64,000 nt of DNA from a virus. The stretch is from IMG/VR virus record IMGVR_UViG_3300029789_000001; one strand, given 5' to 3'. The position numbers and the translations under genes are program-made. The notes below the pieces were generated by a model. That model saw nothing but the letters and a program-made list of their open reading frames with translations, did no database searches and was not told the DNA's origin. This document shows, in pieces, positions 4,027 through 63,265 of the stretch. The stretch's first letter is position 1. Every line of letters begins with the position of its first letter.

Positions 4027-4514
4027 TGTGCTAATTCTATATTAATTTCTAATTCATTCTTTCTACTTCTAGTACTACCTTCTAGTTGTCTAGCAGCACT
4101 CCAGTTAGAAATCTTTGTAAGATAGCCGATAATGCGATCCCATAGACTTACATGAGTACTACCACATTTAGGACATTTACTAAACGGTTGTTTTGCTATA
4201 AAATGACACTCTTCACATTCACAATTAGGAATATTAAAAGTAGCATATTTACAACCTACTTTAGCCATAAATTTAAGTAAATACTCATATTGTTTCTGAC
4301 TCAAATGTTCAGATAAATTAAGATGACAAGCAGAACCCCCATCCAATTCATCAGCAGCGAATTCAGAACTATGAAGTATAATTTTATCAAGTATACTTAT
4401 ATGTGTATCATTAGGTTTAAATATATAACTAGCATACAGATTAGTATCTGTAGGAATCCAATAGCCATCAGCTTTATCTCTATTATAAAGTTTTACTGAA
4501 GCGCTTTCTGCCAT
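4023..4514 (-). CDS. nrdD: NrdD C-terminal segment (glycine-radical domain plus zinc ribbon). It is either exon 2 of an intron-split nrdD or a separately translated split-gene fragment.
   Basis: Motifs DGGSACHLNLSE, CECEECHF...CPKCGS and the glycine-radical motif RIIGYL. GAAGGAG sits 9 nt upstream of its ATG, which is a rare SD-like site in this window. Confidence 0.85.
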   Translation of the reverse strand: MAESASVKLYNRDKADGYWIPTDTNLYASYIFKPNDTHISILDKIILHSSEFAADELDGGSACHLNLSEHLSQKQYEYLLKFMAKVGCKYATFNIPNCECEECHFIAKQPFSKCPKCGSTHVSLWDRIIGYLTKISNWSAARQLEGSTRSRKNELEINIELAQ

Positions 4515-4518
4515 TCTG

Positions 4519-5475
4519 TTACGCTCCTTCTATAGAAGGAATTTCTAATATTTTATTTAATTCCTCTATTGGCGAAGGATGATTAATAATATAATATAAA
4601 TCTTTGTTAGGACCATATTCACCAAATAATTCTTGTTCTTTTTTTATTCTAGCTAATACAGCTTCAGCATAAGTAAAATAATTTCCAAGATGTATACTTT
4701 TATAATTATACATTATTCTAGCCGTCCATTTTTTATTTACTTTAAGCCAGTTTACTCCTTTAATTTTTTGATTTAATTTTGTTCCTCTGTTATTATAAGA
4801 ATTTTCTTTTTGAGTACAAACTCGAAGATTTGAAAGCCTATTATCTAAAGAATCCCCATTGATATGGTCTACTACTTCATCAATATTATATTTTTTATCG
4901 TGAAGATGCATTATATATCTATGTACAAAGTATTTTTTACCAGAACCTTCCTCATTTTCTATTCCTGAAAATGCTGCATATTCTTTAATACCACTTTTTC
5001 TTATATAGATTTTATGTTTTTTAATGTCAGGTAAAAATTCTAAATCAACTTTGGTGCTAGCTTTATAATTACCATTTTTATCAAAACATTTTATTTCTAC
5101 ATAATCTTCATGAATAACATATTCATTAGCGTCGTATATAGTTCTATCTCTAATAGCCCCATGTCTAGTTATTTGGATATAATGTTTACGACAATACGGG
5201 GTTCCCTCAAAAGAAGCCATTTTTAAATCTCCACAAATACTACATTTTTCTAAAGGCTTTTTATGTTTTCTTTTAGAAGTGTCGGTGATTTTACCATATT
5301 TATTTAATTGGTCATAGTGTTTTTCACAAACTATATAATCATTGAATCTTCTAAGTTTCCCTTCTTCTTTAGTACTTCCACATACTTCACAGGTACATTC
5401 ATCTGGTATTCTTTTTCTTACTCTTTTTTCTTTTACTAAATTTCTTACTTTTAAAATGTCTAATTTTTGTTCCAT
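4519..5475 (-). CDS. HNH homing endonuclease with an AP2 DNA-binding domain, inserted between the two nrdD segments
   Basis: HNH motif VDHINGDSLDNRLSNLRVCTQKENSYN. AP2-like motif GVNWLKVNKKWTARIMYNYKSIHLGNYFTYAEA. Cys4 zinc knuckles at the N-terminus. Confidence 0.85.
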   Translation of the reverse strand: MEQKLDILKVRNLVKEKRVRKRIPDECTCEVCGSTKEEGKLRRFNDYIVCEKHYDQLNKYGKITDTSKRKHKKPLEKCSICGDLKMASFEGTPYCRKHYIQITRHGAIRDRTIYDANEYVIHEDYVEIKCFDKNGNYKASTKVDLEFLPDIKKHKIYIRKSGIKEYAAFSGIENEEGSGKKYFVHRYIMHLHDKKYNIDEVVDHINGDSLDNRLSNLRVCTQKENSYNNRGTKLNQKIKGVNWLKVNKKWTARIMYNYKSIHLGNYFTYAEAVLARIKKEQELFGEYGPNKDLYYIINHPSPIEELNKILEIPSIEGA

Positions 5476-5733
5476 AAACTATAATTTTTATATTTACTGT
5501 TATAGAACAACTATAGACCCTCATCCTTGGGAATCAAAATTATTTTGTATATTATATTATTAACGGAGAAAATTCTTCGATTTTCTCTCTCTATGTTACC
5601 ATAGAGTTCGGACTATTGCATATTTTAAATAAATTTATTTAAAATTCTCTTTATTTAGTCTCTCAGGCTGCCCATAATTATAATAATTATTGCTTGCCCC
5701 TCGTTGTCCTTAATCTAAGGAGTTTCGAGTCAA

Positions 5734-8562
5734 TTAAAAGAGATTTATAGTGCCCACACGTCTAGGCACTTGTTCAGTATTAAATTGAGCTGTTTTAGTT
5801 TTATGTTTCTTATTCTGTTCTTTTATAGTACTGAATATCAATCTACAGAATGTCTTATAATAAATATTATTATTACATTCCATTCCTAAGTATTCAGCCG
5901 CCTGATTTAAACCATTAATTCCAATAGTTAAATATTGTTTATCAAGATTAATAAAACCAGCATCATAAGCAGCATATAAATGATGATCTTTGCACCAATG
6001 CATTAAGTCGTTATAAGCATACTGATATAAATAAACTCTTTCAAGAATATTTTCTATATATTTCTTAATTCCTTCTTGGAAGTCTTTATGTGTAATCCAA
6101 TCTACTGGGAAACAACATCTATTGGTGTTAACATCAATATGGTCTTTATAATCAGACCAAGTATGCTGCCAATCCTGAATAATTCTATTTAAATCAAGAG
6201 TGATAACATTCTTACTACCAGTCATTATACCTATTTGACCATTAGTAGTATTAAATGTATTTTCTTGTACCGCATTCTGTAAACGACAATTATGAGTAAT
6301 TAATCCACTTGGTAATGTAAAATATGGTTCAGAAGTATTTTTACATTCTATACAATATACTCTATCATTGTAATCATATGGTTCGATAGATTTTATTTTA
6401 AAGTATATTCCATTATTATATTTTATCCAACTATGTTCCTTGTCTTTATTAGCTCTATGATTTGCATCTTCATACCATCTTACACAATATAATGGGTAAT
6501 TTCTTTTATAATGTTCCTCGCGTATTATAACTTCTTCATCTGTTCTATTTGATATATTAATAATGCTTTGCATTCCTAAAGAAGTTATTAAGGCTTCCAT
6601 ATTTTCTGCTAATTCAGGAGAAGTCGTGTAGCATCTGTTAGAATTTCCCCCATCAGTATCATACCATCCTTGTAGTATACCTTCTCTAAATTTTACAGAT
6701 TGAAGAAGACAATTCATGTTTAATTTCTTATTATAAGCATAAGTTCCTCTATACCAATTAGTCCATTTTTGAATAAAAGCAACTAAATTTTTATTAGATA
6801 CTCTTAATGGATAAACATTATTTACTACTTCTTTTAAAACCACGTTAGGTTCATATCCCATTTGTTTTAATGCGAGATTCCAATAAAATTTAGAACGTTT
6901 ATATTTTTGTTCATTTTGGGATAAATTAATATCATAGATAACTCCATTTATTTCAGAACTAAAAGAGCCATCACCTAAAAATGATCCAATTACATAACCT
7001 TGGGCGTAAGTTAAATGTTCATTATTATCTGGAATAGCACTCAACTTAGAAGTATTGAATAATAAGTAATCATTAATAGTTAACTGTTCTGTTGGTTTTT
7101 CTCCTTGTAAAGTTACATTTATATGATTATCAGTCATAATAAACTCTTTATTATTATAAGTGGTAACTTTATACATAGGACGATTAGGTAAATCTATAAC
7201 TTTGCCAGCTACCCAAGAGCCATTGTGAAATACTTTAAAATTCTCTTTCATATTTTTATATGGAAGATTTTTAAATTCTTCAAAGGTAGTTAGATGTACT
7301 CCAGAAGTGCTAGATTTCCATAAAAACTTAGTATCTTTAGAAAAGCAACATGAACTTAAACTATCTACACTACGAGACAGATAAGTAAAGAAAGAATTTC
7401 CTTGAGCATATTCACTGCATATAAAATGGAAAGTATCTAAATCTTTAAAATTACCTTCCTTATCTGTTAAGCAAGCATAACTACATACAGGAAATGTTAA
7501 AATACATTTTAATCTTTCTTGATTTAACCAATGTAAATAACGTCTTTGTAACCAATTAGTAGAATTCCATTCTGGCTTTGTTCCATCTGGAAATACAAAT
7601 TCTCCAAACATACCTTCAAAGAAATATTTATCGAAGAATGAAAAATTTGTAAATGGGGACTGCATTCCTCTAGCTCCTGCTATTTGATTAATGGAATAAG
7701 TTACCTGTTGGAAATATTGATCAATTTGACTGCCAATAGTTTTCTGTTTTATACAATAATCTGTAGTTATTTTTACACTTGGTTTGAGATAATAATTATT
7801 TCCCCATTCTTTTCTACAGAAATAATCCATATACATCAGAAACTCAGGAGTAGCTACTGCTCCTTTAATTTCAGAGGCTAATGCAAAGTTTAGATTTACA
7901 TAAATACCACAAAATGAATCAAGGTTCTTTGGAACAGCTGATTTACCTCCTAATTTCTCTAATCCAAACAACAAGAAAGGATACATAGAAGCTGCCATAC
8001 AATATGGTTCTCCTACTTGAGAAGATGAGTCATGAGGATATAAAATAGTTTTAAAGTCATTCCTCATAACTTTTATATTAAAGTTAGGGTCTCTCTTCTT
8101 TACAAAACTTTCCCACCATTCTGTATTAGTAAGTTTATTATCGACTTTATGTATTTCAGCGTTTAATACTCCAATACCTTTAGTTCCTACATTACTATTA
8201 TCATCAATAGTAGCATTAGCAGTATTATCAGACTTTACAAAATTATGAATAAATTTAATATCCCTAGTAGTATGATTTCTAATATCTTCACGTTCTTTAC
8301 GATATAGAATATATTTTTTAGCCACATCGTGATATCCTAAATCCATTAAGAGTTCTTCAATTTGGTCTTGAATATCCTCAATAGATTGATCTTCAGTCTC
8401 TACTACAGAATTAGTTATCTCAGTAACTGCTCTGTAAATATCTTCGTCCATTGTTTTACTAGAATTTTGGGTAATTCCAAAAGCCTTTAGTACAGCATCT
8501 CTAATTTTGTTTCTGTTAAACTCTTCTTTAATTCCGTCTCTCTTTATTACCATAAATAACAT
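5734..8562 (-). CDS. nrdD: anaerobic ribonucleoside-triphosphate reductase, N-terminal and main part, carrying an in-frame LAGLIDADG intein
   Basis: ATP-cone at the N-terminus (VIKRDGIKEEFNRNKIRDAV). NrdD core motifs TGSKNVITLDLNRI and TIGINGLNQAAEYLG. It ends at ...QVPRRVGTINLF before the expected glycine-radical domain. Confidence 0.85.
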   Translation of the reverse strand: MLFMVIKRDGIKEEFNRNKIRDAVLKAFGITQNSSKTMDEDIYRAVTEITNSVVETEDQSIEDIQDQIEELLMDLGYHDVAKKYILYRKEREDIRNHTTRDIKFIHNFVKSDNTANATIDDNSNVGTKGIGVLNAEIHKVDNKLTNTEWWESFVKKRDPNFNIKVMRNDFKTILYPHDSSSQVGEPYCMAASMYPFLLFGLEKLGGKSAVPKNLDSFCGIYVNLNFALASEIKGAVATPEFLMYMDYFCRKEWGNNYYLKPSVKITTDYCIKQKTIGSQIDQYFQQVTYSINQIAGARGMQSPFTNFSFFDKYFFEGMFGEFVFPDGTKPEWNSTNWLQRRYLHWLNQERLKCILTFPVCSYACLTDKEGNFKDLDTFHFICSEYAQGNSFFTYLSRSVDSLSSCCFSKDTKFLWKSSTSGVHLTTFEEFKNLPYKNMKENFKVFHNGSWVAGKVIDLPNRPMYKVTTYNNKEFIMTDNHINVTLQGEKPTEQLTINDYLLFNTSKLSAIPDNNEHLTYAQGYVIGSFLGDGSFSSEINGVIYDINLSQNEQKYKRSKFYWNLALKQMGYEPNVVLKEVVNNVYPLRVSNKNLVAFIQKWTNWYRGTYAYNKKLNMNCLLQSVKFREGILQGWYDTDGGNSNRCYTTSPELAENMEALITSLGMQSIINISNRTDEEVIIREEHYKRNYPLYCVRWYEDANHRANKDKEHSWIKYNNGIYFKIKSIEPYDYNDRVYCIECKNTSEPYFTLPSGLITHNCRLQNAVQENTFNTTNGQIGIMTGSKNVITLDLNRIIQDWQHTWSDYKDHIDVNTNRCCFPVDWITHKDFQEGIKKYIENILERVYLYQYAYNDLMHWCKDHHLYAAYDAGFINLDKQYLTIGINGLNQAAEYLGMECNNNIYYKTFCRLIFSTIKEQNKKHKTKTAQFNTEQVPRRVGTINLF
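6289..8347 (-). mobile_element. intein (353 aa) with a LAGLIDADG homing-endonuclease domain, inside nrdD
   Basis: Block A: CFSKDTKFLW follows SLSSC. Two LAGLIDADG motifs: VIGSFLGDGSF and LQGWYDTDGGNS. C-terminal ITHN followed by the extein Cys. Excision regenerates SSC-CRLQ. Confidence 0.8.
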
Positions 8563-10828: not shown

Positions 10829-11142
10829 TAATTATTTCCTTTAATAGTTCCCATCAAAATATCTTTATCTTTTACAATAGTATAATTAATACTCCATTTA
10901 GTATGTCCAAAATTAGCTGTAATATAATTACTACTACCATACATACTACCTACTGATATATAATCAAACTGCTTACCAGTAGTATAAGCATAATTATGTA
11001 AATCACCTTTTACTACATAAATATGAGGACTACATATACCTTTTTCTGCTATATAATTAGCAAAGAATAATTCAGTCTGAGGATTTAAAGTAAGAGGAAA
11101 TTGTCTAGTCTGAGAATTATTATCTTTCAGTTTTGTTATCAT
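10828..11142 (-). CDS. hypothetical protein; possible downstream exon (motif V region) of the SbcD-like nuclease
   Basis: TLNPQTELFFANYIAEKGICSPHIYVVKGDLHN resembles the SbcD TLDAFPAQNF...YIALGHIH region. Weak. Confidence 0.35.
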   Translation of the reverse strand: MITKLKDNNSQTRQFPLTLNPQTELFFANYIAEKGICSPHIYVVKGDLHNYAYTTGKQFDYISVGSMYGSSNYITANFGHTKWSINYTIVKDKDILMGTIKGNN

Positions 11143-11279
11143 ACAGCTTTTTATCTGTATTTCTATAGTTTCTTATTTACTATAGCTCGGCGTACATATT
11201 CACCTCCACCTTTACGTGCTGAGGGCAAACCACTCTTGGAACTATTTTATTCTGATTTCTCAGGTTCAAGTTCTACGCT

Positions 11280-12377
11280 CTACGATGCTACAGACTCTTT
11301 AGTTTCTGTAGTTATCTCGGTATTAGCATCACAGCCTTCACCGATATTGGTTTGTTTTAACATATTTGATTTCTCAAATATACGGCAAAAATAAATAAAT
11401 TTTTCATATTTTCTATTTAAATAAATTGAGCAATTATCATATAATTTATGTAATACATACATAGCTTTTCTACTAGAAGCCTGTATATACATAGTAATTT
11501 CTTTTTTATTATTATGATTATGAAATAAAGTTTCTTCTATATTTAAATAACTCATAATAACCTTTAAAAACTCTTTAGTTCCAAGTATTTGATATACTGG
11601 AATAGTATGTTCTTTATTAGCATAGCTAATACACCCATCACCATCAAAATAACCTCTAATAAAATGTCTTATTAAGTCCCTAGATTTAAAGATACTTTCA
11701 TCAGGAAATTTTAATGTTAAACTCTTTCTAGGAGTACATCCTAAAGAATTTAGTTGTTTCCATAAGATTTCACTGGATAAACATACTCTACATCTAGTAT
11801 GTCCATATTTATCAGCTTTAGTAACATGTAATTCTTTATTGTACCCAATAGCTTTTGCAAATTTTTCCATATGTTCTTTATCATCCCCTTTAGTACATAG
11901 TTCAAAGTTCCAATCTATCCTTTCTTTGGATGTATCTAGAGGGGAACTATAAATATAACCATCAGCAAATATAAAACCTAACCAATAAGCTTTTTCTTCA
12001 GTATCTATATTGTCAAAAAAATGTTCATTGTAAGATTTTTCTTTCTTTCCCTTTTTATTAGGATTATAAAGATTTAAAGTTACTAAATGAGTTTTTAAAG
12101 TTTGTGCTCCAATATTATATTTTATAGCGGAAGCACGTAATCCTGTATCAGAATTAATATAATCTTTTATAGCTAAATTTAAATTCTTAATAGTTATACC
12201 CGTTAAATATACACTATAAGAATAGTTATTATCTTTTAATAATTGCTCTAAATAATCTCGGCTAACTTTATTAGCTTTACAAAAAGCAGTTAGCTTTAAT
12301 TCCGAATTTAAAAAATTATTTAATATTTCTATGAGAGTATTATAACTCTTCCACGGAAATATAATAATTAAAATATG
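11280..12377 (-). CDS. LAGLIDADG homing endonuclease (two-motif, ~360 aa). The open frame has no ATG at its 5' end.
   Basis: Manual translation of the frame upstream of the tracked ORF is continuous from 12377. Motifs AYWLGFIFADGYIY and IRGYFDGDGCISY. The first in-frame ATG is at 11870, in the middle of the protein. It ends at TAG, followed 10 codons later by TAA. Confidence 0.75.
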   Translation of the reverse strand, partial: HILIIIFPWKSYNTLIEILNNFLNSELKLTAFCKANKVSRDYLEQLLKDNNYSYSVYLTGITIKNLNLAIKDYINSDTGLRASAIKYNIGAQTLKTHLVTLNLYNPNKKGKKEKSYNEHFFDNIDTEEKAYWLGFIFADGYIYSSPLDTSKERIDWNFELCTKGDDKEHMEKFAKAIGYNKELHVTKADKYGHTRCRVCLSSEILWKQLNSLGCTPRKSLTLKFPDESIFKSRDLIRHFIRGYFDGDGCISYANKEHTIPVYQILGTKEFLKVIMSYLNIEETLFHNHNNKKEITMYIQASSRKAMYVLHKLYDNCSIYLNRKYEKFIYFCRIFEKSNMLKQTNIGEGCDANTEITTETKESVAS

Positions 12378-12387
12378 TTAAAATTTA

Positions 12388-13626
12388 TTACAAAACTCTA
12401 CCGTGAGCATATAGGAATTGATGATCTCCAATGATGAAATTATCAATAGGATAGTTACTAATATAACTCTTAACATTATATTTAGTTAAATATGCAGCTA
12501 AAAGTTTCTGATTTAACCATTCAAAATCACCACCATGATTAGATTCTCCTATAGAGAGATAATTAAAATCTTTACTTTTTACTTTTACTGTAAGAGTAGC
12601 AAAGAACTCCATCATACACTCTATAAATGCTTCACTAATTTCTTTATTATCAAGAATCTCAGGAAGCTCATGACCCCCTCTAGTAGTTTCTTTATTGAAC
12701 CCATCAATAGAATCTCCAAGATTAACTACATATACAGAATGATATTCTTGTTCCACAAAAGATTCCACAATTCTAGATAATCTAGATTTAATTTCTGGAA
12801 CATCATAAGAAGGTAACTGTACAAAACTACTATATTTAGCATTATAAGCTCCGATATGTAAATCAGATAACCATATAATTAAATCAGGATATTTTGCTTC
12901 TTTATTATTAATATTTACTGGAAGCTCTTTATAATCCTTTACTGTATTTTTAATAGTATCTTCTATAAGTTCCTTATTTAAAGACTTAGAGGTTTCCTTA
13001 GTTAACTTAGTAACTAAAGCTCTTAAATCCTTTACTTCATCTTTCTCTATTCTTTTTAAGAAATCATTCTCTTTTTCTCTAAGATGCATTTCTTTTAATT
13101 CATCCTCAGTATATTCTTCATACATATGAGGAGCAAATGGAGAGGATGCTTTAGTAATATTAAAAGCTCGTAAAATTCTTTTAAAGTCAATAAGAGAATA
13201 GTCTGGGAAATATCTGCTGACAATCTGCTGGGTTAAACCAGAACCGTAATAAGTATACATTCTATATACACTATTCATTTCGTTTCTAGTAAAGACTCCT
13301 GTGATTGCGGGCTTATTTCTTCTGAAAATCTCAAACTTATATCCAGTAATTTTACCAGTATCCTCGTCTCTTATTTCCCAAGTATTAGAAGCATCATCTG
13401 TATCTTTCTTTACTTCTTTTTTCTTAGTATTCTTTAGTTTATCATATAATTCCAATATCTTCTTATCATCTTCATCTTTATTTTCTTTCTTTTTAAGATT
13501 TCTCATTGTCATATATACAGTATTTATATTTTTTCCTGATATAGTACACTGAGCTTTTAAAGAACGATTATTATTAATTGCATCATTAAAGAACTTAATA
13601 TAAGAAGATTTTGTTGCTTGTTTCAT
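12388..13626 (-). CDS. calcineurin-like metallophosphoesterase of the SbcD/Mre11 nuclease family, with a 240-aa N-terminal extension. It ends right after motif IV.
   Basis: Motif I IIWLSDLHIG, motif II VVNLGDSIDG, motif III SIGESNHG, motif IV IIGDHQ. Double TAA TAA stop. Motif V is absent from this ORF. Confidence 0.65.
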   Translation of the reverse strand: MKQATKSSYIKFFNDAINNNRSLKAQCTISGKNINTVYMTMRNLKKKENKDEDDKKILELYDKLKNTKKKEVKKDTDDASNTWEIRDEDTGKITGYKFEIFRRNKPAITGVFTRNEMNSVYRMYTYYGSGLTQQIVSRYFPDYSLIDFKRILRAFNITKASSPFAPHMYEEYTEDELKEMHLREKENDFLKRIEKDEVKDLRALVTKLTKETSKSLNKELIEDTIKNTVKDYKELPVNINNKEAKYPDLIIWLSDLHIGAYNAKYSSFVQLPSYDVPEIKSRLSRIVESFVEQEYHSVYVVNLGDSIDGFNKETTRGGHELPEILDNKEISEAFIECMMEFFATLTVKVKSKDFNYLSIGESNHGGDFEWLNQKLLAAYLTKYNVKSYISNYPIDNFIIGDHQFLYAHGRVL

Positions 13627-13732: not shown

Positions 13733-14722
13733 TTAAATTATATTAAATATGTTTATATCTGTAGAATTATAAGGAATTTCATAATGATTATTTACAAATG
13801 CTTTATATCTTAAGTATTTTCTGGTTAGATATATTGAACAATTATCATATAAATAATGTAAGAACTCAATACTTTCTGATTTTTTAAGTTTTAAATTGTA
13901 ATAATCATGTGCAGTATGGCACAACTAAATTAAGCCATTATTTTGATTACTATATTCTGCTATTTTAGTCACCAACTGTAAAGTTCCAAGTACTGAACAT
14001 CTAGGAACTATTCCATATTTATATTTATTATAACTAATACATCCATCACCATCAAAATAACCTCTAATGAAATGTCTTATTAAATCTTTGGATTTAAATA
14101 TATTCTCATTAGGAAATTTAAGAGTTAAGGATTTATTAGGAGTACATCCATATTTATTTAAAGTCTGCCACAAATGTTTATTAGAGGCTGCCCAAACACA
14201 ACTATTAGCATTTTGTCTTATATTGACTGTTCCAGACATAAAAGTATTAAATTTATGTAAATGTTCAATATCAGAATTTTTTAAAGTTATATTTAAAGTG
14301 TATGTCTAAATTTTTTTAGTAACAGTCTTAATATTACCATCAGCATAAATGAACCCTAACCAATACGCTTTTTCTTCAGTATCAATAGAATCAAATATAG
14401 TTTCTGATATCCTAGATTCAATCTGCTTATTTTTAATATTGTAACCTAAATTTTTTAACTTTTCAGATAATGTAGTTCTACTAGTATGATAAATATCTGC
14501 TAAATATCTAAGACTTTTTCCTTCCTTCCAAGGTTTTATTATATCTTTATCAAAATCTTTTATTAATGATTTCTTAGGATTATGCTAAGTTATATTCCAA
14601 GTTCTTAGATTTTCTAAAATAGAATTTTTAGAGACTTTATATTTTTCACTAAGTTCAGTTATTGAAATTCCATCAATATAATCCTATATTAGATTTTGTT
14701 TAATATTATTTAAATCTTTCAT
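13733..14722 (-). pseudogene. second LAGLIDADG homing-endonuclease gene, paralogous to 11280..12377. One continuous frame interrupted only by 4 TAG codons, so either a pseudogene or an amber-read-through gene.
   Basis: MKDLNNIKQNLI(TAG)DYIDGISITE...WNIT(TAG)HNPKK...AYWLGFIYADGNIKTVTKKI(TAG)TYTL...NGLI(TAG)LCHTAHDYY...NIFNII(TAA). The IRHFIRGYFDGDGCISY stretch is near-identical to copy 1. Confidence 0.7.
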
Positions 14723-14758
14723 AAACATAAATAGGGAGGATTACTCCTCCCTAAAATA

Positions 14759-30415: not shown

Positions 30416-30897
30416 AATTTATAAATATAAAGAGTTATTGTTAAATCATTAGCAAAAAGTTCTTGGAGCATAGGATAAACTACTCCGTCCCAATCTCCTC
30501 CTGCTAATCCACATCCTAATTTATAAGGAATGCCTATCTCTGTAATCTCGTTATCTTTACAAAGGTCTTTTAAATCTAATAAAGCTTTTTTAAGAGCATC
30601 ATAATCAGTATGTCTATTTTCATAGGGAGCTATTGATTCAGTAAAAGAATATTCACCAAATAAATTAGCTACGAGATTAATAGGTTCATCTCCTGTTATA
30701 CATACTTGACATTTCCCTAATAATTCTTTAGAATATTTAAAATATTTACAATAATTGGCATATCGTGTATATACGCTATTCCATTTATTTTTAATAGCCT
30801 TAGCTATACCTGCCCCCATTACTCCTAAACAATTAGTTTGATGGGCTATAAGAGGTAAATTTGACTGAAGTAAATCTCCATTAACAATTTTTATCAT
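30403..30897 (-). CDS. macrodomain protein (ADP-ribose binding or processing)
   Basis: IAHQTNCLGVMGAGIAKAI matches the macro-domain VNAAN...GGGV..AI ADP-ribose pocket. A second glycine motif is LGCGLAGG. Confidence 0.7.
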   Translation of the reverse strand: MIKIVNGDLLQSNLPLIAHQTNCLGVMGAGIAKAIKNKWNSVYTRYANYCKYFKYSKELLGKCQVCITGDEPINLVANLFGEYSFTESIAPYENRHTDYDALKKALLDLKDLCKDNEITEIGIPYKLGCGLAGGDWDGVVYPMLQELFANDLTITLYIYKLCNN

Positions 30898-31644
30898 ACT
30901 AATGTTGAATTTACACGTTCACGAATTTCAGAAAGAGAATATTCTCTTACTAATTCTCCATCTACAAAGACTGTTTTAAGACAACCTTGCAGTTCTGCAT
31001 CCTTGGTCTGCTGGTCATAAGCGACATACTTACCATCCTCTTTTTCAACTCTTATAAGACCTTTGAGAGAGTTCTTTGTTCCATCATCAGTCTTTGGGTG
31101 CTTATAGATTTCTATAAGTTTACCATTAATGGTGCATGCGGTCGCTTTAACTGCGAAACCCAAAGAATCTCTACTCTTAAACTGATAAGTATAAGATCCA
31201 ATACCAAGAACAAGATTACAAGCTGCCATATGAGCGTTCTCTAATCGAGCATAGATATCACGCTGACGCTCTAGAGTGATAGAATCTCCATAGAGCAACC
31301 CAACCTTGGTGCTTGGATAACGATAATCGTTCACAGTAGTATTCCATCCAAAGATTTTACCTAGCATATAATATGCTCCATAATACTGACCTTCAGATAC
31401 TTCTACATAATGACTCTCATCATCATCCATAAATGGATTGAAATCACAGTAGTACTTACCCTCTTTCATAGCAGTGTGGTAATGAGGATTTGTACGAAGA
31501 CCACAAATAATATCCACTGGGTCACCACTATCAGGACGAATTACTACTCGACCATCACGCTTCATAATGTCTTTTTTCAGACGAGGGAGAATACGTTCTA
31601 CCACTCTCCAAAAATCATAAGTATCACTAACTATAGATACAATT
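30894..31644 (-). CDS. nicotinamide phosphoribosyltransferase-family (NAMPT/NadV, possibly Namat) protein, proposed exon 2. The tracked ORF extends to 31736 inside the intron.
   Basis: IVSIVSDTYD, VVIRPDSGDP, LLYGDSITLER and VLGIGSYTYQ match the NAMPT C-terminal half. Confidence 0.7.
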
Positions 31645-32375
31645 CCAATAGGATATAATTCATTTATCAATCTTTTAATTGACAATAATTCTCCAATAAG
31701 TTTTTTGTCCTCTTCAGACGCTTTTTGAATTTTCATATTTATACGCTTTTTTCAAATTATCAATAGCCCATAAAGGCTGTAAATTTTTATAACAGAAACA
31801 CTCTTTTTGCTATATAGGATCAGATAAATCAAAAGAGGAACATGGTCTTATATGATCTAAATGCCATTCACCATAATTATCCCAGGACATTCCTTCAGTA
31901 AATTTGTTTGCAATATATTCTTTTAAAAATTCTATAGAACATCCGATTAATTCCATAGTATGTGCAGATTTAGATTCTCCTTTTAGAGCATGTGCCACTC
32001 TACGTCTGAGGTTATTACGAATTTTAAACTTTAAAGAATTTCTTTCCCATATTCTTTTTTGCTCCCGTAATTTATCTTTATTTTCTTGTCTATAAATTTT
32101 GTCATAAGCAGCTTTTTCTTCTTTATGAGCATCTGCATAAATTTTCTTTTGTGCTAATATATGCTCTTTATTTTCTTCATAATATTTATGTCTAGCTACT
32201 TTAACTTTATCTTTATTAGCCTCTCTATATGCTTTATTTTTAGCATTTCTACATTCTTTACAATGAGTATCTAACCCATCTTTATTTCTTTTGCACTTAG
32301 GAAATTCTGAAATAGGTTTTTCCTAACCACAATTAGAACAAATTTTTGTCTCCATTTTTATCAATATATCCAATT
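31645..32375 (-). other. putative 731-nt group I intron in the NAMPT-like gene, carrying an HNH endonuclease ORF
   Basis: Splicing at ..aaaUU|a...auugG|a gives mature ...DDFGKLIVSIVSDTYD, the same spacing as human NAMPT FSSVPVSVVSDSYD. U at the exon end and G at the intron end. The junction is ambiguous within a 6-nt repeat ATTGGA. Confidence 0.5.
31810..32322 (-). CDS. HNH homing endonuclease, intron-encoded, with no ATG at the start of the open frame
   Basis: Frame open from 32322: EKPISEFPKCKRNKDGLDTHCKECRNAK...(K-rich repeats)...GEWHLDHIRPCSSFDLSDPI. HNH motif plus CxxC...HCxxC zinc site. The track shows only the last 62 aa, from an internal Met. Confidence 0.7.
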   Translation of the reverse strand, partial: EKPISEFPKCKRNKDGLDTHCKECRNAKNKAYREANKDKVKVARHKYYEENKEHILAQKKIYADAHKEEKAAYDKIYRQENKDKLREQKRIWERNSLKFKIRNNLRRRVAHALKGESKSAHTMELIGCSIEFLKEYIANKFTEGMSWDNYGEWHLDHIRPCSSFDLSDPI

Positions 32376-33175
32376 AATTTACCAAAATCATCTAAGATTA
32401 TTTCTTCTACATTATCTTCAAAATCACTAATAGTAGAGCAAGCCACTGAATGTTCCGAAGCCGGGACAGTTGCAGCTACAAGTTCTTCAGTAACATTTGC
32501 ATCGTAATAATGCTCTACTGCTTCAATAGCAGGAATTGTTTCACTACCACAGAATGAAGTCATATGAGCCATACCGGAGATAATAGCAGCATCAAGTCCT
32601 GCCATACCTCTCATTGAGAAATCGTGACAAGAAAAACCTAGATTTACTTCCTCTGGGAATCCAGTCTTTCTAGCATGTTCCATAAGTCTCTTCTTATAAA
32701 GACGAGCACTTGTTGCAGAAGTACAAGGAAGCCATAGAGTACAACTAATTAAAGTTTCCAAGTAATTAGTCAACCAAAAGAAGTCCGGGAGAGTGTTCTT
32801 AATAGTCATCATAGGTACTCTTATAGGACAGATAGAACCTTCAGGAAGAGCTTTAATTTCAATAGGAAGATATCCTAAATCATAGAGTTCTTCAATATGC
32901 TTTGTCCCAACCTGGTTAAGGTCTACAAAGTTACCTACACGATAAGCAAATTGCTTAATAGCTTCTTCCTTAGGAAGAGCAAACCATTTGTTAAATTCCT
33001 CTATCAAATACTTCTTTACAAAGTACTGAATACCAAATACTACAGAACCTTCTGTAGCTTCTGGGAAGTAACGATTACTTCTAGGAGTCCAGTTACTATA
33101 GACCATTTGTGTACCCTCTGGGTACATACGATGATGACCAAGCTTATAGCCATCAGTTGCATTAATAATTTCCAT
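32376..33175 (-). CDS. NAMPT/NadV-family protein, proposed exon 1. The tracked ORF 32333..33175 reads into the intron.
   Basis: DGYKLGHH at the N-terminus, FSCHDFSMRG (cf. NAMPT GLHDFGFRG) and SEHSVACSTISDFEDN. Confidence 0.7.
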
Positions 33176-33665
33176 TAATTGATTCTTTTAATGTTAAACC
33201 TATACTATATTTATAAAACACTTCAGTTATATAACTCTTAGTTTTTTTGTGGATTTTCATATGAGGCTGTTGTTTAAGCCACCATGTATATTCTCTTCTA
33301 GGGTCAGCTCCATATGTTTTAGCTGCTGCTAAATAATCACATATAAGTTCTAGAACGTATTTTTTAGGCATTTTAGCAGGAATCCCTCCATTATCTAAGG
33401 AATGTATCCAATATTCATAATGATGAGGATTTCTTCCTCTATGGTGAAGGAATGTTTGACTATATCCTAATACTCTACATTCATTCGCTAATGAACTTAT
33501 ATTATCATCCCAATATTTAATGGCTCTTGAAAATTCTGTAAAACTAAATTTAGATAAATCATGAATAATACCTTGCCAATATAATCCTATTTGAAAGCAA
33601 TATTTAGCAACATAATACTTATGAGTTAAGATTCGCTTTATTAATTTCAACCAAACTAAGTTCAT
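33162..33665 (-). CDS. hypothetical protein
   Basis: ORF track, 167 aa. Confidence 0.4.
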   Translation of the reverse strand: MNLVWLKLIKRILTHKYYVAKYCFQIGLYWQGIIHDLSKFSFTEFSRAIKYWDDNISSLANECRVLGYSQTFLHHRGRNPHHYEYWIHSLDNGGIPAKMPKKYVLELICDYLAAAKTYGADPRREYTWWLKQQPHMKIHKKTKSYITEVFYKYSIGLTLKESINGNY

Positions 33666-36157: not shown

Positions 36158-36524
36158 AAATTAAATAATAAGATTAAATAATTGGAGGCATGTATAATCT
36201 ACAATACTGATTAGCATACCAAGTCCAACCCTTCTTAAATGCTTTTAAAGTTCTTTTTAAAATTTTCATCATAATAAATCAAATTTAAAGTTTAACTTAT
36301 AAAATATCTAGGAGGAGAGTTTAAAAAATTAAGAATCCCAGGTAAATCACCCCTGTTAGAGACATGGTCTCTATTTTTATTATTTAGGATTCTATAGGAA
36401 TGCAAAAAACCATCGAACCATTCCAGTTCGTAGGTTCTACGACACCTAATAGGCGAGTATGCATCGTTGAGAGGCACCCTATAAGTTACGTTGCTCCTGT
36501 AACTAGTATTCTAGAGCTTTGTTA

Positions 36525-37240
36525 TTATCGTTTTCTTTTATCAATTCTAGTACAATTTTTATTTCTAGAGCCAAAATTTTCCGTTAAGGCATGACAATTA
36601 GGGCATAGTAACTAAAGATTTTCTTCTTTATTATTTAAACAATCTCCATCAATATGATGGATTTGTAATGGTACTAAACCTGTGAAATAATTTACCTAAT
36701 TCCACCCACATTTTTGGCAAGAATTATTAAATTTTTCTTTTAAATATACTTTTACTGCTGTAGCTATTTTATCTTTTCCAATAATACCCGATTCCTTACC
36801 TGCTTTCCATCTTTTAATATATTCCTTTCTTTCATATTCTGCTTTACACGTATTATTACAATATTTATTTCCTTTAGTAATTTCTTTTCCACAGTTCAAA
36901 CAGAGTGAATAAGTAGGTAAAGATGGTTTATTTCGTACTACTCCAATATTATTATAACTAGCTGCACAAGAATGATTACAGAAATCATTAACTCGTTTTC
37001 ATAAGGAATTATTTTTCCACAGTATTTACATACTTTAGGATTTTTATCATAAGATTCCTTAGAATATCTAATCTTAAAATGTTCCGTACTTAAATTATTT
37101 GATTTAATAAAATCTCTTATTTTATTTATATTGTAAGTATTATTAGTACATAATAACTACTTACAAACCTAATTTAAATTTTCGCTATTTGATATAGCTA
37201 ATCTAATTTCTTCACTGGTGCATTCTTTGAATTTCTTCAT
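36525..37240 (-). pseudogene. HNH endonuclease gene with zinc-ribbon repeats, disrupted by one frameshift and 4 in-frame TAG codons
   Basis: Segments MKKFKECTSEEIRLAISNSENLN(TAG)VCK(TAG)LLCTNN...CKYCGKIIPYENE, then a frame shift, then FCNHSCAASYNN...CLNCGKEITKGNKYCNNTC...SCQKCGWN(TAG)VNYFTGLVPLQIHHIDGDCLNNKEENL(TAG)LLCPNCHALTENFG...(TAA). Confidence 0.6.
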
Positions 37241-37275
37241 ATTGTACTATTTTTTAATTACTGTTTAAAATTTAC

Positions 37276-37305
37276 ATAAAAAGCGGGAGAACAGTAAAAC
37301 TCCCG
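37276..37305 (-). terminator. rho-independent terminator (CGGGAG/CTCCCG stem followed by a U-run on the minus strand)
   Basis: Read directly, downstream of 37360..37698. Confidence 0.55.
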
Positions 37306-37359
37306 TAGTCAGGTAATTACTCTGATTTAGCTTTTTATGTTATATGAAATATCATTATA

Positions 37360-37698
37360 TTATTTATAAGATATCTTTCCAACGCATGAAGAATAAGAAA
37401 TTTTTTTATTATTATCTTCTAATATATAATAATAATCCTCAAATGTTTCTTGAATACCTTTAAAGACATATTCTTTATTCATATGCCCATTCATATAACA
37501 GGTTTTTCCTACATTAAGTAGTTCTTCTTTTACCCATTTTGGAGCATCTTCAGGAACATTGTCTACAGAATAATAATTCCCTATTACTTCATACATTAAT
37601 TTATTTATTAATTGTTGGAAAGTCTTCATTAAAATAGGAACATCTTCAGTTTTATACTTTAATGTTTCTAAATTGTCTGTATCAATAGTTATTTTCAT
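37360..37698 (-). CDS. hypothetical protein
   Basis: ORF track, 112 aa. Confidence 0.35.
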   Translation of the reverse strand: MKITIDTDNLETLKYKTEDVPILMKTFQQLINKLMYEVIGNYYSVDNVPEDAPKWVKEELLNVGKTCYMNGHMNKEYVFKGIQETFEDYYYILEDNNKKISYSSCVGKISYK

Positions 37699-37713
37699 AA
37701 ATTAATTTAATAG

Positions 37714-37787
37714 TGGAGCGTAGGAGATTCGAACTCCTAAGAATGCCTGCGTGCAAAGCAGGTGCTGACCACTTGAGCCGACGCCCC
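37714..37787 (-). tRNA. tRNA-Ala (anticodon UGC)
   Basis: Manual cloverleaf. Acceptor GGGGCGU/ACGCUCC. Anticodon stem CCUGC/GCAGG with loop UUUGCAC. T-arm AGGAG-UUCGAAU-CUCCU. No encoded CCA. Confidence 0.6.
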
Positions 37788-42173: not shown

Positions 42174-43727
42174 TTATACATTTACGTTGGTGTTTTCTAC
42201 GTCGCCATTAACGTTAACATTCTTGTTAACCTTAGCATCAATGGTGTTAGCCTTCATAATGTCTGCCATATCTACACCTGTGGCATCTTTTACAATGTCA
42301 CGAGTCTGCTTAATAATAGCAGGCACATTACCAGAAATACCAGAAGCCTCAGAACCATTAGTTCCATAAACTGTCATATTGCCAATCTTACTCATAGGCT
42401 CAGCAATATACTTAGCCATATCAGGAAGAACTTTCTCATTAAGTTTAGAAAGCATGTCAATTACAGCAATAGAGCCATACTTACTGTATGCTTCAGCCTT
42501 CTTCTGCATAGCCTCAGCTTCTGCAAGACCCTTAGCCTTCACACCTTCAGCTTCTGCCAAAAGTTTAGCTTTAGTACCTTCAGCTTCCGCAGTTAAGGTC
42601 TGCTGAGTAGCATATGCTTCAGCTTCGCCCTTAGCACGAATACCTGCTGCCTCCTGCTCCTGAGAATAACGATTAGCTTCAGCCTTAGCTTTTACAGCCT
42701 TAGCAGTTTGCTCTGCCTTATAAGCTTCAGCCTCAGCCTCACGCTTCTGCTTCTCCAAAGCAGCCTGAGCATCAATTTCTGTCTGATACTTGTCAGCATC
42801 AGCCTTAGCATTTACATCTGCAAGATACTCATTCTGCTTAATCTTAATCTTCTCCTCAGATAAGGTCTGTTCTTTACGAGTCTTCTCAATATCAGCATCT
42901 ACAGTCTTGATATTAATAGTTTTCTGCTGCTCCTGCTGCTGAATTTCATATGCAGCATCAGATTCAGCCTTCTTAATATCAGACAATCTCTTCAGTTCAG
43001 CTCTCTTAATAGCTAATTCATTATTACGTTCAGCAATAATAGTATCAGCCTTTACTCGTGCTTCATTAGCTTCATTGTCAGCCTCAGCCTGAGCCTTAGC
43101 TACGTCTCTATCAGCATTAGCACGAGTAATCTTAGCATTCTTCTGAATAGCTGCTGTATTATCAGCTCCCAAATCACGGATCAAGCCTTTCTCATCAGTA
43201 ATATTTTGAATATTGCAAGACAAAATCTCAAGACCTAACTTAGCCATATCAGGAGCTGCCTTCTTCTGAATTTCATCAGAGAATGCATCTCTATCAGTGT
43301 TAATCTTAATTAAGTCAAGAGAACCTACTACTTCACGCATATTACCCTCCAAAGAATCTTTCACCTGAGCAGCAATCTGCACAGAATTCATATTCAAGAA
43401 GTTCTTAGCTGCAAGTCTAGTGCCTTCTGTATCAGGTTTTACCCTAACTTTACATACGGCATCTACCATTACATCCAAGAAATCATGAGTAGGAACTGGT
43501 TGTGAAGTCTTAACATCAACTGTTACTTGACCAAGATATACTTTATCTAATCGTTCAAGTACAGGAATTTTTACTCCACCACCACCGATAAGTACTCGTG
43601 GCTCCTTACGAAAACCTGAAAGAATGTACGCCATCGAAGGAGGAGCTTTAACATACATTGTAGCAATAATAACAAGCAGTACAATAATAACGACTGCGAT
43701 AACACCAATAAGAACTAAATGTTCCAT
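42174..43727 (-). CDS. flotillin / SPFH (band-7) family membrane protein
   Basis: N-terminal TM helix, SPFH core, then a long Ala/Glu/Lys-rich coiled-coil (EAEAYKAEQTAKAVKAKAEA...). GC-rich at about 42%. Confidence 0.75.
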   Translation of the reverse strand: MEHLVLIGVIAVVIIVLLVIIATMYVKAPPSMAYILSGFRKEPRVLIGGGGVKIPVLERLDKVYLGQVTVDVKTSQPVPTHDFLDVMVDAVCKVRVKPDTEGTRLAAKNFLNMNSVQIAAQVKDSLEGNMREVVGSLDLIKINTDRDAFSDEIQKKAAPDMAKLGLEILSCNIQNITDEKGLIRDLGADNTAAIQKNAKITRANADRDVAKAQAEADNEANEARVKADTIIAERNNELAIKRAELKRLSDIKKAESDAAYEIQQQEQQKTINIKTVDADIEKTRKEQTLSEEKIKIKQNEYLADVNAKADADKYQTEIDAQAALEKQKREAEAEAYKAEQTAKAVKAKAEANRYSQEQEAAGIRAKGEAEAYATQQTLTAEAEGTKAKLLAEAEGVKAKGLAEAEAMQKKAEAYSKYGSIAVIDMLSKLNEKVLPDMAKYIAEPMSKIGNMTVYGTNGSEASGISGNVPAIIKQTRDIVKDATGVDMADIMKANTIDAKVNKNVNVNGDVENTNVNV

Positions 43728-43806
43728 AAATTTGTAAATGTTTAAATAATAAAAATTAAATATCTAAGAATTAACTGATGTTAATTCCAAGGGGGGCATT
43801 TATTTT

Positions 43807-62227: not shown

Positions 62228-63265
62228 TTTTTTATGTGTTAAATTTAATTATATGATATAATTATTTTATTTTCATTCTTTACATATGAGATATGAAATA
62301 GATCTAATGATTTAGCAAATTTATCTGCCAAGTCATTATTATGAAATATTATTTCAATTCCACATTCTGATATAAAGCAGCTTTGAATATTATTATCTGC
62401 TTTTCCTTTTTCGATTATTGCTTTCATATTTAATGTTATTATTGTTCATTACCGATAATAGTTATGGATTTAATATCTTTATATTCAAGAATAATATTAT
62501 TCATGTATTCATTACTAAATACTATTCTATCAAGATACTCATATTTATTCATTCCATAAGCATTAGTTATAACACCACCATTAGTAATAATAACTCCATG
62601 TACTTTCTCAATATTTGTACATAAGATATTTACTAATTCATTTAATACATTTCTATCCATAATTTTAATGTTAAAGAGTTAATAATCTAATTTAAATTAA
62701 GCACTTTAGTTTTAAGACCTATAAACCACGTTGAGGTATGCTTTACGATATAGGATTTCGTCTAAAGTAAACTTTAGACAGGGATTTCAACCTTTGGGTA
62801 AAAACCTTTTGTTTTTGTTTGTGTTTTGTTTTGTTTTATTATTTTTGATTAAACATCTTACAAAGAATAAAAATATTATTGTATAAAATTCTTATAAATT
62901 GTTTGATGTTATGAGGATTTTTGGAGTGATATATAAGTTGGTTTTAGTGAGAGAGATTGGGAAATTGAGGAAAGGTTTGGTTTGTGGATTGGGGTTAGTG
63001 TGCACACAAACTCATGCCAATCCATATAAACAACTAACCTTCCTTATCCAATCCCAACTTATCCCCCACCAATTCCAACTATCTCTCCAAACAGCATACT
63101 TGACCACGATAACTTTACCATTCTCAATCAACAACATGAAAATTCCAACAATTTGTGTCGGAAGTTGAACATTGTAGAACTCTAAAGTTTCGAGGTCAAC
63201 AAGCTTATTTTTTCCATAAACTCCCTTAATAGTTTTGTACATACAAAAAATACAAAGAATTTATA

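Follow-up and report, generated by a model that had tools for sequence, protein, structure and literature searches.

The 64,000-nucleotide (nt) stretch of IMG/VR virus record IMGVR_UViG_3300029789_000001 analysed here, which we call the window, has a guanine-plus-cytosine (GC) content of ~30%, carries all of its genes on the minus strand, and encodes a block of replication and nucleotide-metabolism genes, among them NrdD, helicases, DnaB, primase and NAMPT, none of which contains an in-frame TAG. The block also holds six free-standing homing endonuclease genes, and four of these are crossed by TAG codons: LAGLIDADG-2 at 13733..14722, a GIY-YIG gene, an HNH gene, and an HNH-motif open reading frame (ORF) that splits the NAMPT gene. 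Across the ~990 codons of these four genes, TAG occurs in frame 13 times, TAA and TGA never. We conclude that, very probably, the window is the early/replication part of the ~176 kb genome of an uncultivated phage of the human gut, that the late genes of this phage follow genetic code 15, with TAG read as glutamine (Gln), and that the four endonuclease genes are mobile genes written in the late code, which would yield full-length products only under amber suppression.

LAGLIDADG-2 matches Pfam LAGLIDADG_1 and LAGLIDADG_3 above their cut-offs, with two motifs readable in its translation (WLGFIYADGN and IRGYFDGDGC). Translating positions 13733-14722 bears out an earlier, preliminary description of the window, in which this gene is one frame with four TAG codons, no TAA or TGA in its interior, and a TAA at its end. 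Two other contigs (L008 and L009), both missing LAGLIDADG-1, carry LAGLIDADG-2 at the same site; their copies share 97% identity with that of the window and keep all four TAGs. The codon differences between LAGLIDADG-2 and the L008 copy comprise 18 synonymous and 6 non-synonymous changes, with four of the synonymous ones lying beyond the last TAG, and this pattern indicates that purifying selection acts on the whole ORF, including the part downstream of the TAGs. Aligning the two LAGLIDADG genes of the window with four phage homologues was uninformative as to the amino acid encoded by these TAGs, all four of which fall in variable columns.

The GIY-YIG gene had been described as spanning 54083..54538 with two TAGs. 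Both TAGs (54496 and 54349) are in place; the supposed end at 54085 proves to be a third, and the ORF runs on to a TAA at 53906. Homologues align over residues 1-210, past this apparent stop, and at the very position of the TAG at 54085 two of them (L105 and L109) carry a codon for Gln (KKIDQFDMAGNY); another (L110) has Q at the EELE-x position, the site of the TAG at 54349. The protein matches Pfam GIY-YIG (E = 6.6e-12) and, at residues 103-138, helix-turn-helix families. The HNH gene at 36525..37240 likewise keeps part of its earlier description: its four TAGs stand once the frame is corrected, and its single continuous frame does not, as two overlapping frames meet at an A-run near 36993. 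One G is missing there, the intact homologue L179 (92% identity) reading GAAAAGCGA and the window GAAAACGA. The frame-corrected product matches Pfam HNH at 26.7 bits (cut-off 21.4). TAG is retained at these four positions in the intact homologues L179-L181, and the positions hold across HNH homologues of 70-92% identity. L180 has Q at the second site, and a further homologue (L182) has Q within the conserved NLQLLCPNCH; where TAGs are replaced in HNH homologues, the replacement is Q.

The HNH-motif ORF in the NAMPT gene had been taken for an intronic gene that stops at a TAG, with a TAA seven codons further on. This did not hold: the TAG at 31812 is followed by 31 sense codons, which supply the second, catalytic half of the HNH motif (NLQPLWAIDNLKK) and run to a TGA at 31714. 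The ORF has no Pfam match at E<=0.01, and we assign it provisionally to HNH by the motif HLDHIRP...NLQPLWAIDNLKK, read by eye. The flanking ORFs, at 32333-33187 and 30894-31751, match NAMPT_N and NAPRTase and represent the two halves of NAMPT. Because the 642-nt HNH ORF occupies the entire gap between these halves, because the downstream half has its own ATG, overlapping the 3' end of the HNH ORF, and because Rfam at gathering thresholds finds no intron family within the window, NAMPT looks as though it has been split by a free-standing endonuclease gene rather than by an intron.

The preliminary description had weighed 10 TAG against no TAA or TGA; the excess of TAG stands, with the count corrected to 13. 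TAG makes up 24% of the stop triplets on this strand in all three frames, and the chance probability of 13 TAG and no TAA or TGA is ~1e-8. This bears on whether the endonuclease genes are decaying pseudogenes and their TAGs nonsense mutations. Such a history would suit the frameshift in the HNH gene at 36525-37240, the badly disrupted GIY-YIG homologue L152, and the state of LAGLIDADG-1, the first 169 codons of which (11871-12377) are open and family-homologous and contain no ATG, GTG or TTG, so that this gene may have an unusual start codon or be inactive. It does not suit the exclusive use of TAG in a 30% GC genome, nor the behaviour of the homologues. The in-frame stop codons of 80 LAGLIDADG loci from IMG/VR comprise 28 TAG, 37 TGA and no TAA, and TAG and TGA never occur together in one locus; the TGA columns of the family align to Trp (61/61 in one column), and in the TAG columns Gln is enriched 5-fold. 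The 55 distinct GIY-YIG homologues contain 121 TAG and 16 TAA/TGA; of these 16, L152 accounts for nine, another six are TAA that occur singly close to where the matched stretch ends, and the last is an isolated TGA in L131. Sense codons of varied identity at the TAG positions combined with TAA or TGA disruptions, which the preliminary description had named as evidence against recoding, are not what the homologues carry. Together with the TAG positions kept across HNH homologues of 70-92% identity, the purifying selection beyond the TAGs of LAGLIDADG-2, the homology that continues past the apparent stop in the GIY-YIG gene, and the half of the HNH motif that lies beyond the TAG at 31812 in the NAMPT-splitting ORF, these data already contradict decay, which we give almost no chance of being the explanation. 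The endonuclease ORFs are, to judge from these comparisons, conserved through and past their TAGs, and the TAGs are best read as glutamine codons under code 15 and not as lesions.

The layout of a close relative settles the interpretation as recoding. Two scaffolds of human-faecal origin in GenBank, MT835492 (121.6 kb) and MT835539 (54.9 kb), share 94-99% identity with the window. Both are 'Bacteriophage sp.' records (L001-L005), and with overlaps of 124 bp at either end they join into one circle of ~176 kb. A late block of ~95 kb in this relative, which encodes the capsid, the portal (PF16510) and very large proteins, has an ORF coverage of ~0-0.3 under the standard code and 0.9-1.0 with TAG as sense, with no comparable gain when TGA is taken as sense; its late ORFs contain 826 TAG in 27,035 codons (3.06%). 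The non-late part of the relative, judged by eye, has PolA-, sigma factor-, ligase- and ThyX-like genes, none with an in-frame TAG. An early-standard, late-recoded layout of this kind is known from crAss-like, Lak and other gut phages (Borges et al.; Yutin et al.).

The identity of the encoded amino acid emerges from portal orthologues in nine IMG/VR relatives, which are about 87-99% identical in nucleotide sequence, as estimated from difference counts. The codons that alternate with TAG in these genes are CAA (13 cases), CAG (two) and AAG (one), and none of the genes has an in-frame TAA or TGA. Since CAA and TAG differ at two positions, the dominance of CAA implies that the two are synonymous, and the comparison indicates that TAG is a Gln sense codon in this lineage. 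For code 15 itself, metaproteomics in crAss-like phages has supplied the proof (Peters 2022, PMC9523058). The resemblance to the recoding of large gut phages that the preliminary description had pointed out is supported by the TAG-open late block of the relative, the interchange of TAG and Gln codons in orthologues, the Gln codons of endonuclease homologues at the TAG positions of the window, the occurrence of TAG or TGA but never TAA in homologues, and purifying selection. A large protein database was set aside as an independent read of the TAG positions, since its full-length matches (723 amino acids) are genes called through TAGs, where the residues may simply have been dictated by the translation table; the comparison was therefore made on DNA loci.

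Within the 64-kb window, a stop-to-stop scan with TAG as sense finds mid-gene TAG confined to the endonuclease genes, in agreement with the earlier statement that the other genes have no internal TAG; elsewhere, TAG falls upstream of a start codon or at the end of a gene. TAG terminates 10 of 73 early ORFs (about 10-14% of early genes). This avoidance of TAG inside early genes, together with its use as their stop, implies that TAG terminates translation when early genes are expressed.

None of the six free-standing endonuclease genes occurs in the near-identical relative. Five of the absences are precise indels in colinear sequence: the window positions that flank LAGLIDADG-1 and LAGLIDADG-2 are joined in MT835492 at 35688/35672 and 34338/34320, respectively, those that flank the GIY-YIG gene are joined in MT835539 at 4450/4463, and MT835492 is likewise without HNH_3 and the HNH gene at 36.5 kb. 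The sixth gene, the NAMPT-splitting HNH ORF, is gone with the whole of NAMPT, as a segment of 2.6 kb. This distribution marks the endonuclease genes as mobile insertions. The features of the window and the intervals that the relative lacks are listed in Table 1. Two entries, HNH_3 and the LAGLIDADG intein of NrdD, were absent from the preliminary description, and the end of LAGLIDADG-1 is as given there. The early block also encodes an SPFH/flotillin-like protein with Band_7 and Flot domains (42174-43760).

Table 1. Endonuclease genes, tRNA genes and associated features of the window, with the window intervals missing from the close relative.
Feature	Position	Strand	Interval missing from relative	Description
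HNH_3 endonuclease	4519..5475	minus	4511-5765	Pfam HNH_3, E = 9e-10; no TAG
NrdD with LAGLIDADG intein	5734..8562	minus		Pfam NRDD, ATP-cone, Intein_splicing, LAGLIDADG_3; no TAG
LAGLIDADG-1	11247..12377	minus	11113-12401	no internal TAG; ends at TAG 11282, TAA 10 sense codons beyond
LAGLIDADG-2, free-standing homing endonuclease	13733..14722	minus	13735-14755	329 amino acids, 330-codon frame; TAG at 14686, 14587, 14308, 13927; TAA stop
HNH-motif ORF between NAMPT halves	31714..32355	minus	30990-33570 (with NAMPT)	213 amino acids; TAG at 32325 (codon 11) and 31812 (codon 182); TGA stop
HNH endonuclease	36525..37240	minus	36520-37785	TAG at 37171, 37159, 36698, 36614 after frame correction; 1-nt deletion near 36993
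Main tRNA cluster	53313..57117	minus		Ile-UAU, 6-nt-loop tRNA-like, Leu-UAA, Gln-UUG, Ser, Glu, Lys, Phe, tRNA-like A, tRNA-like B, Arg (ARAGORN, Rfam)
6-nt-loop tRNA-like gene	~53630-53707	minus		anticodon loop UUAAAA; Rfam tRNA only 24 bits
GIY-YIG homing endonuclease	53906..54538	minus	53888-54626	210 amino acids; TAG at 54496, 54349, 54085; TAA stop at 53906
Candidate minimal HDV-like (theta) ribozyme	54571..54625	minus		one base after 3' end of tRNA-Leu(UAA); 32 nt upstream of GIY-YIG start codon
tRNA-like A	56443..56526	minus		ARAGORN 'tRNA-Stop (UUA)'; Rfam tRNA 53 bits; 4-bp anticodon stem around 20 nt, anticodon uncertain
tRNA-like B, paralogue of A	56957-57037	minus		Rfam tRNA 47 bits; 4-bp anticodon stem around 18 nt

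The presence of late-code genes in an early block suggests a possible consequence for the timing of their expression, and the preliminary description had already raised a switch that depends on an amber suppressor. In the early state, host release factor RF1 would terminate translation at the first TAG, leaving peptides of only 10-23 residues; in the late state, with amber suppression active, full-length endonucleases would be made alongside the late proteins. It is plausible that the code switch delays endonuclease production to late infection in this way, late-only translation and any selective advantage of such timing being the conditional parts of the proposal. The intein endonuclease, which is translated as part of the early NrdD and is free of TAG, would fit such a model of gating by the code. 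Phage T4 provides a parallel, in that the translation of intron endonucleases such as I-TevI is delayed to late infection by a ribosome-binding site that is hidden in early transcripts. In both cases a selfish endonuclease in early/middle genes would be kept untranslated until late, but the gate proposed here, unlike that of I-TevI, is the genetic code itself.

The idea of gating by the code is already published. In Agate phages, Borges et al. (2021 preprint / 2022 Nat Microbiol) described an early gene with a group I intron whose endonuclease is TGA-recoded; by their account, the in-frame stops should block its production until late. As in the Agate phages, the window has a homing endonuclease in an early, standard-code region with the recoded stop of its phage in frame. 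Unlike the Agate case, in which TGA is read as Trp, the codon here is TAG, read as Gln, and it occurs in four genes of three families, all apparently free-standing, in a block that also has TAG-free endonucleases. What is new here is the use of TAG instead of TGA, the involvement of three endonuclease families, and the recurrence across loci.

An account that shares the Gln reading of TAG needs no regulatory purpose at all. The TAGs could be neutral baggage of genes that move among late regions and TAG-recoded phages, or could arise by drift from CAA or CAG to TAG, with no selection against TAG in a gene that is not needed early. Several features are in keeping with this. The share of TAG among Gln-type codons is 45% in the endonuclease genes that carry it, between the 59% of late genes and the 0% of early genes; homologues adopt the code of their phage, whether TAG or TGA; a LAGLIDADG homologue in a Lak megaphage, and copies in late regions, carry TAGs too; and both the TAG-free HNH_3 and LAGLIDADG-1 genes and the placement of first TAGs, which we consider below, can be counted on the same side. 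Against it, recoded copies recur where the neighbouring sequence is open without recoding: 18 distinct recoded LAGLIDADG loci, from TAG- and TGA-recoded phages, sit in such standard-code surroundings. Moreover, T4 achieves late-only expression of homing endonucleases by other means. In the Agate phages, the intron endonuclease also shows a statistical excess of recoding over the other genes (Borges et al.). We regard purely neutral TAGs as a serious possibility, if one somewhat short of an even chance, and sequence alone cannot separate a gate that has been selected for from one that is merely tolerated.

Several further observations weigh against reading the four genes as late-code genes that are opened by amber suppression. 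The late genes that reveal the code are those of the relative, as the window's own late genes lie outside the window. HNH_3 and LAGLIDADG-1, in the same block, have no internal TAG, and TAG use is thus not universal among its endonucleases. The window's HNH copy at 36.5 kb, being frameshifted, may be dead or an assembly error. The first TAG falls at codon 11-24 in all four genes, an N-terminal bias that is not significant (Fisher p = 0.088) and that we accordingly dropped as evidence of a designed gate; in the late genes, first TAGs have no N-terminal bias (Kolmogorov-Smirnov p = 0.32), and TAGs occur across all ten position deciles. No release factor or GlnRS gene was found among the larger standard-code ORFs of the window, and inspection by eye of the larger ORFs in the remainder of the relative showed none either. 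Finally, ARAGORN and Rfam detect no tRNA(CUA) in the window, as the preliminary description had reported, or in the whole ~176 kb relative, and a genome without a suppressor tRNA was one of the findings that this description had held to speak against recoding. A detectable suppressor tRNA(CUA) is present in only about 40% of TAG-recoded genomes (Borges et al.), and because it likewise goes undetected in ~60% of TAG-recoded phage genomes, its absence here is not decisive.

The lack of a phage tRNA(CUA) in 176 kb would also be expected if TAG were readable at all times, through a host amber suppressor or a host code with TAG as sense, in which case there would be no gating; host-encoded suppressors have been raised as a possibility by Yutin et al. 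We consider this quite unlikely, as it leaves unexplained why early genes have no in-frame TAG and yet use it as a stop, and why TAG is partitioned so sharply between early and late genes, which is the signature of a switch. Hosts of such phages, in addition, use the standard code (Borges et al.). Relaxed ARAGORN settings (ps80/ps70) gave hundreds of spurious calls in which no credible CUA tRNA could be found. Canonical tRNA(CUA) and tRNA(UCA) genes adjoin endonuclease homologues in other contigs, and BLAST searches with two such canonical suppressors (L146, CUA; L023, UCA) found no homologue in the window or the relative. A 91-nt class-II-like tRNA with a CCA (Trp) anticodon is present in the relative and absent from the window.

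Three tRNA-like genes of the main cluster have unusual anticodon arms. The gene that we term tRNA-like A is the sole stop-anticodon call in the window and the relative, is (near-)identical in seven related contigs, each of which also has a copy of its paralogue tRNA-like B (that of L094 being divergent), and scores 53 bits against the Rfam tRNA model. These properties would fit an ochre-type suppressor that reads UAG by wobble. Its anticodon arm, however, is non-canonical, with a 4-bp stem around 20 nt and a U at what would be position 37; the ortholog in L089 is shorter by one T, which would make its anticodon UAU; and tRNA-like B, with a similar insertion, has UCC at canonical positions 34-36 (GCC in L094), both Gly anticodons, followed by A37 and an insertion of ~8-10 nt. 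In addition, TAA terminates 40 of 50 late genes (80%), and because a UUA anticodon would read through these stops first, an efficient UAA reader is implausible. For these reasons tRNA-like A is very unlikely to be an ochre-type suppressor. The third gene, with a 6-nt anticodon loop, has orthologs in L091 and L092 with loops CGUAAA and CGUAGA and with an anticodon stem that differs in sequence from that of the window (UCUAU/GUAGA against CUAGG/CUUAG) and still pairs. A 161-nt non-coding segment (55553-55713) lies just downstream of tRNA-Gln(UUG) in the same cluster. It shares 95.7% identity with Prevotella Lak megaphages, in which a tRNA-Gln(UUG) likewise precedes it, and neither a significant fold (z = -0.5) nor an Rfam match was found.

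Between tRNA-Leu(UAA) and the GIY-YIG gene lies a candidate theta ribozyme, a minimal fold of the hepatitis delta virus (HDV)-like type. It scores 23.3 bits against Rfam HDV-F-prausnitzii, below the gathering score of 44, and its pairings are readable as P1 GAAUAGC/GCUAUUU, P2 AUGAGAA/UUCUCAU and P3 ACC/GGU, with the junction GCUAA. Theta ribozymes occur next to phage tRNAs, with tRNA-Leu among the three commonest partners (Kienbeck et al. 2024, PMC10879173). The candidate resembles those ribozymes in being a putative HDV-like fold at the 3' end of a tRNA-Leu in a TAG-recoded gut phage, and differs from them in its sub-threshold score (23 vs 44 bits) and in that its partner tRNA is not a suppressor. 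A second occurrence of the core motif lies at ~62700-62770 on the minus strand (ACCTCAACGTGGT), with possible P1 CCTATA/TATAGG and P2 AAGCAT/GTGCTT and no adjacent tRNA call. One may imagine that the >800 UAG of the phage are decoded as Gln, with no canonical tRNA(CUA), by a conserved non-canonical tRNA-like gene (A, B or the one with the 6-nt loop), possibly matured with help from the neighbouring theta ribozyme, and that endonucleases of several families systematically use the code switch as a late gate; we see in this combination an outside chance at best.

As to the phage itself, a tblastn search with the capsid against 50,697 phage records matched two unclassified 'Bacteriophage sp.' records only, with no crAss-like match, and a search against PDB sequences gave no match. 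A short DNA match of the primase to crAss-like records was found, and from sequence searches of the capsid alone membership of Crassvirales is not established. Lak megaphages, reportedly treated in Devoto 2019, also belong among the code-15 gut phages. With crAss-like and Lak code-15 phages (Yutin 2021; Peters 2022), the phage shares standard-code early genes, TAG-dense late genes, low GC, many tRNAs, inteins and endonuclease genes; introns are also listed among these traits, and Rfam found none in the window. A further shared trait is that close relatives switch between TAG and TGA recoding and that the suppressor tRNA is often undetectable. Unlike crAss-like phages, it has a capsid with no crAss-like match, in a genome of ~176 kb with about 30% GC.

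The late code of these endonuclease genes has consequences for how such phages are read. Gene callers that use the standard code will fragment them or call them pseudogenes within a standard-code region, and their annotation requires code 15. Our analysis extends a published case of a single family to a TAG-recoded phage, to three endonuclease families, and to 18 LAGLIDADG loci. It lends support to the idea that mobile elements are either adapted to the code switch of their phage or timed by it.

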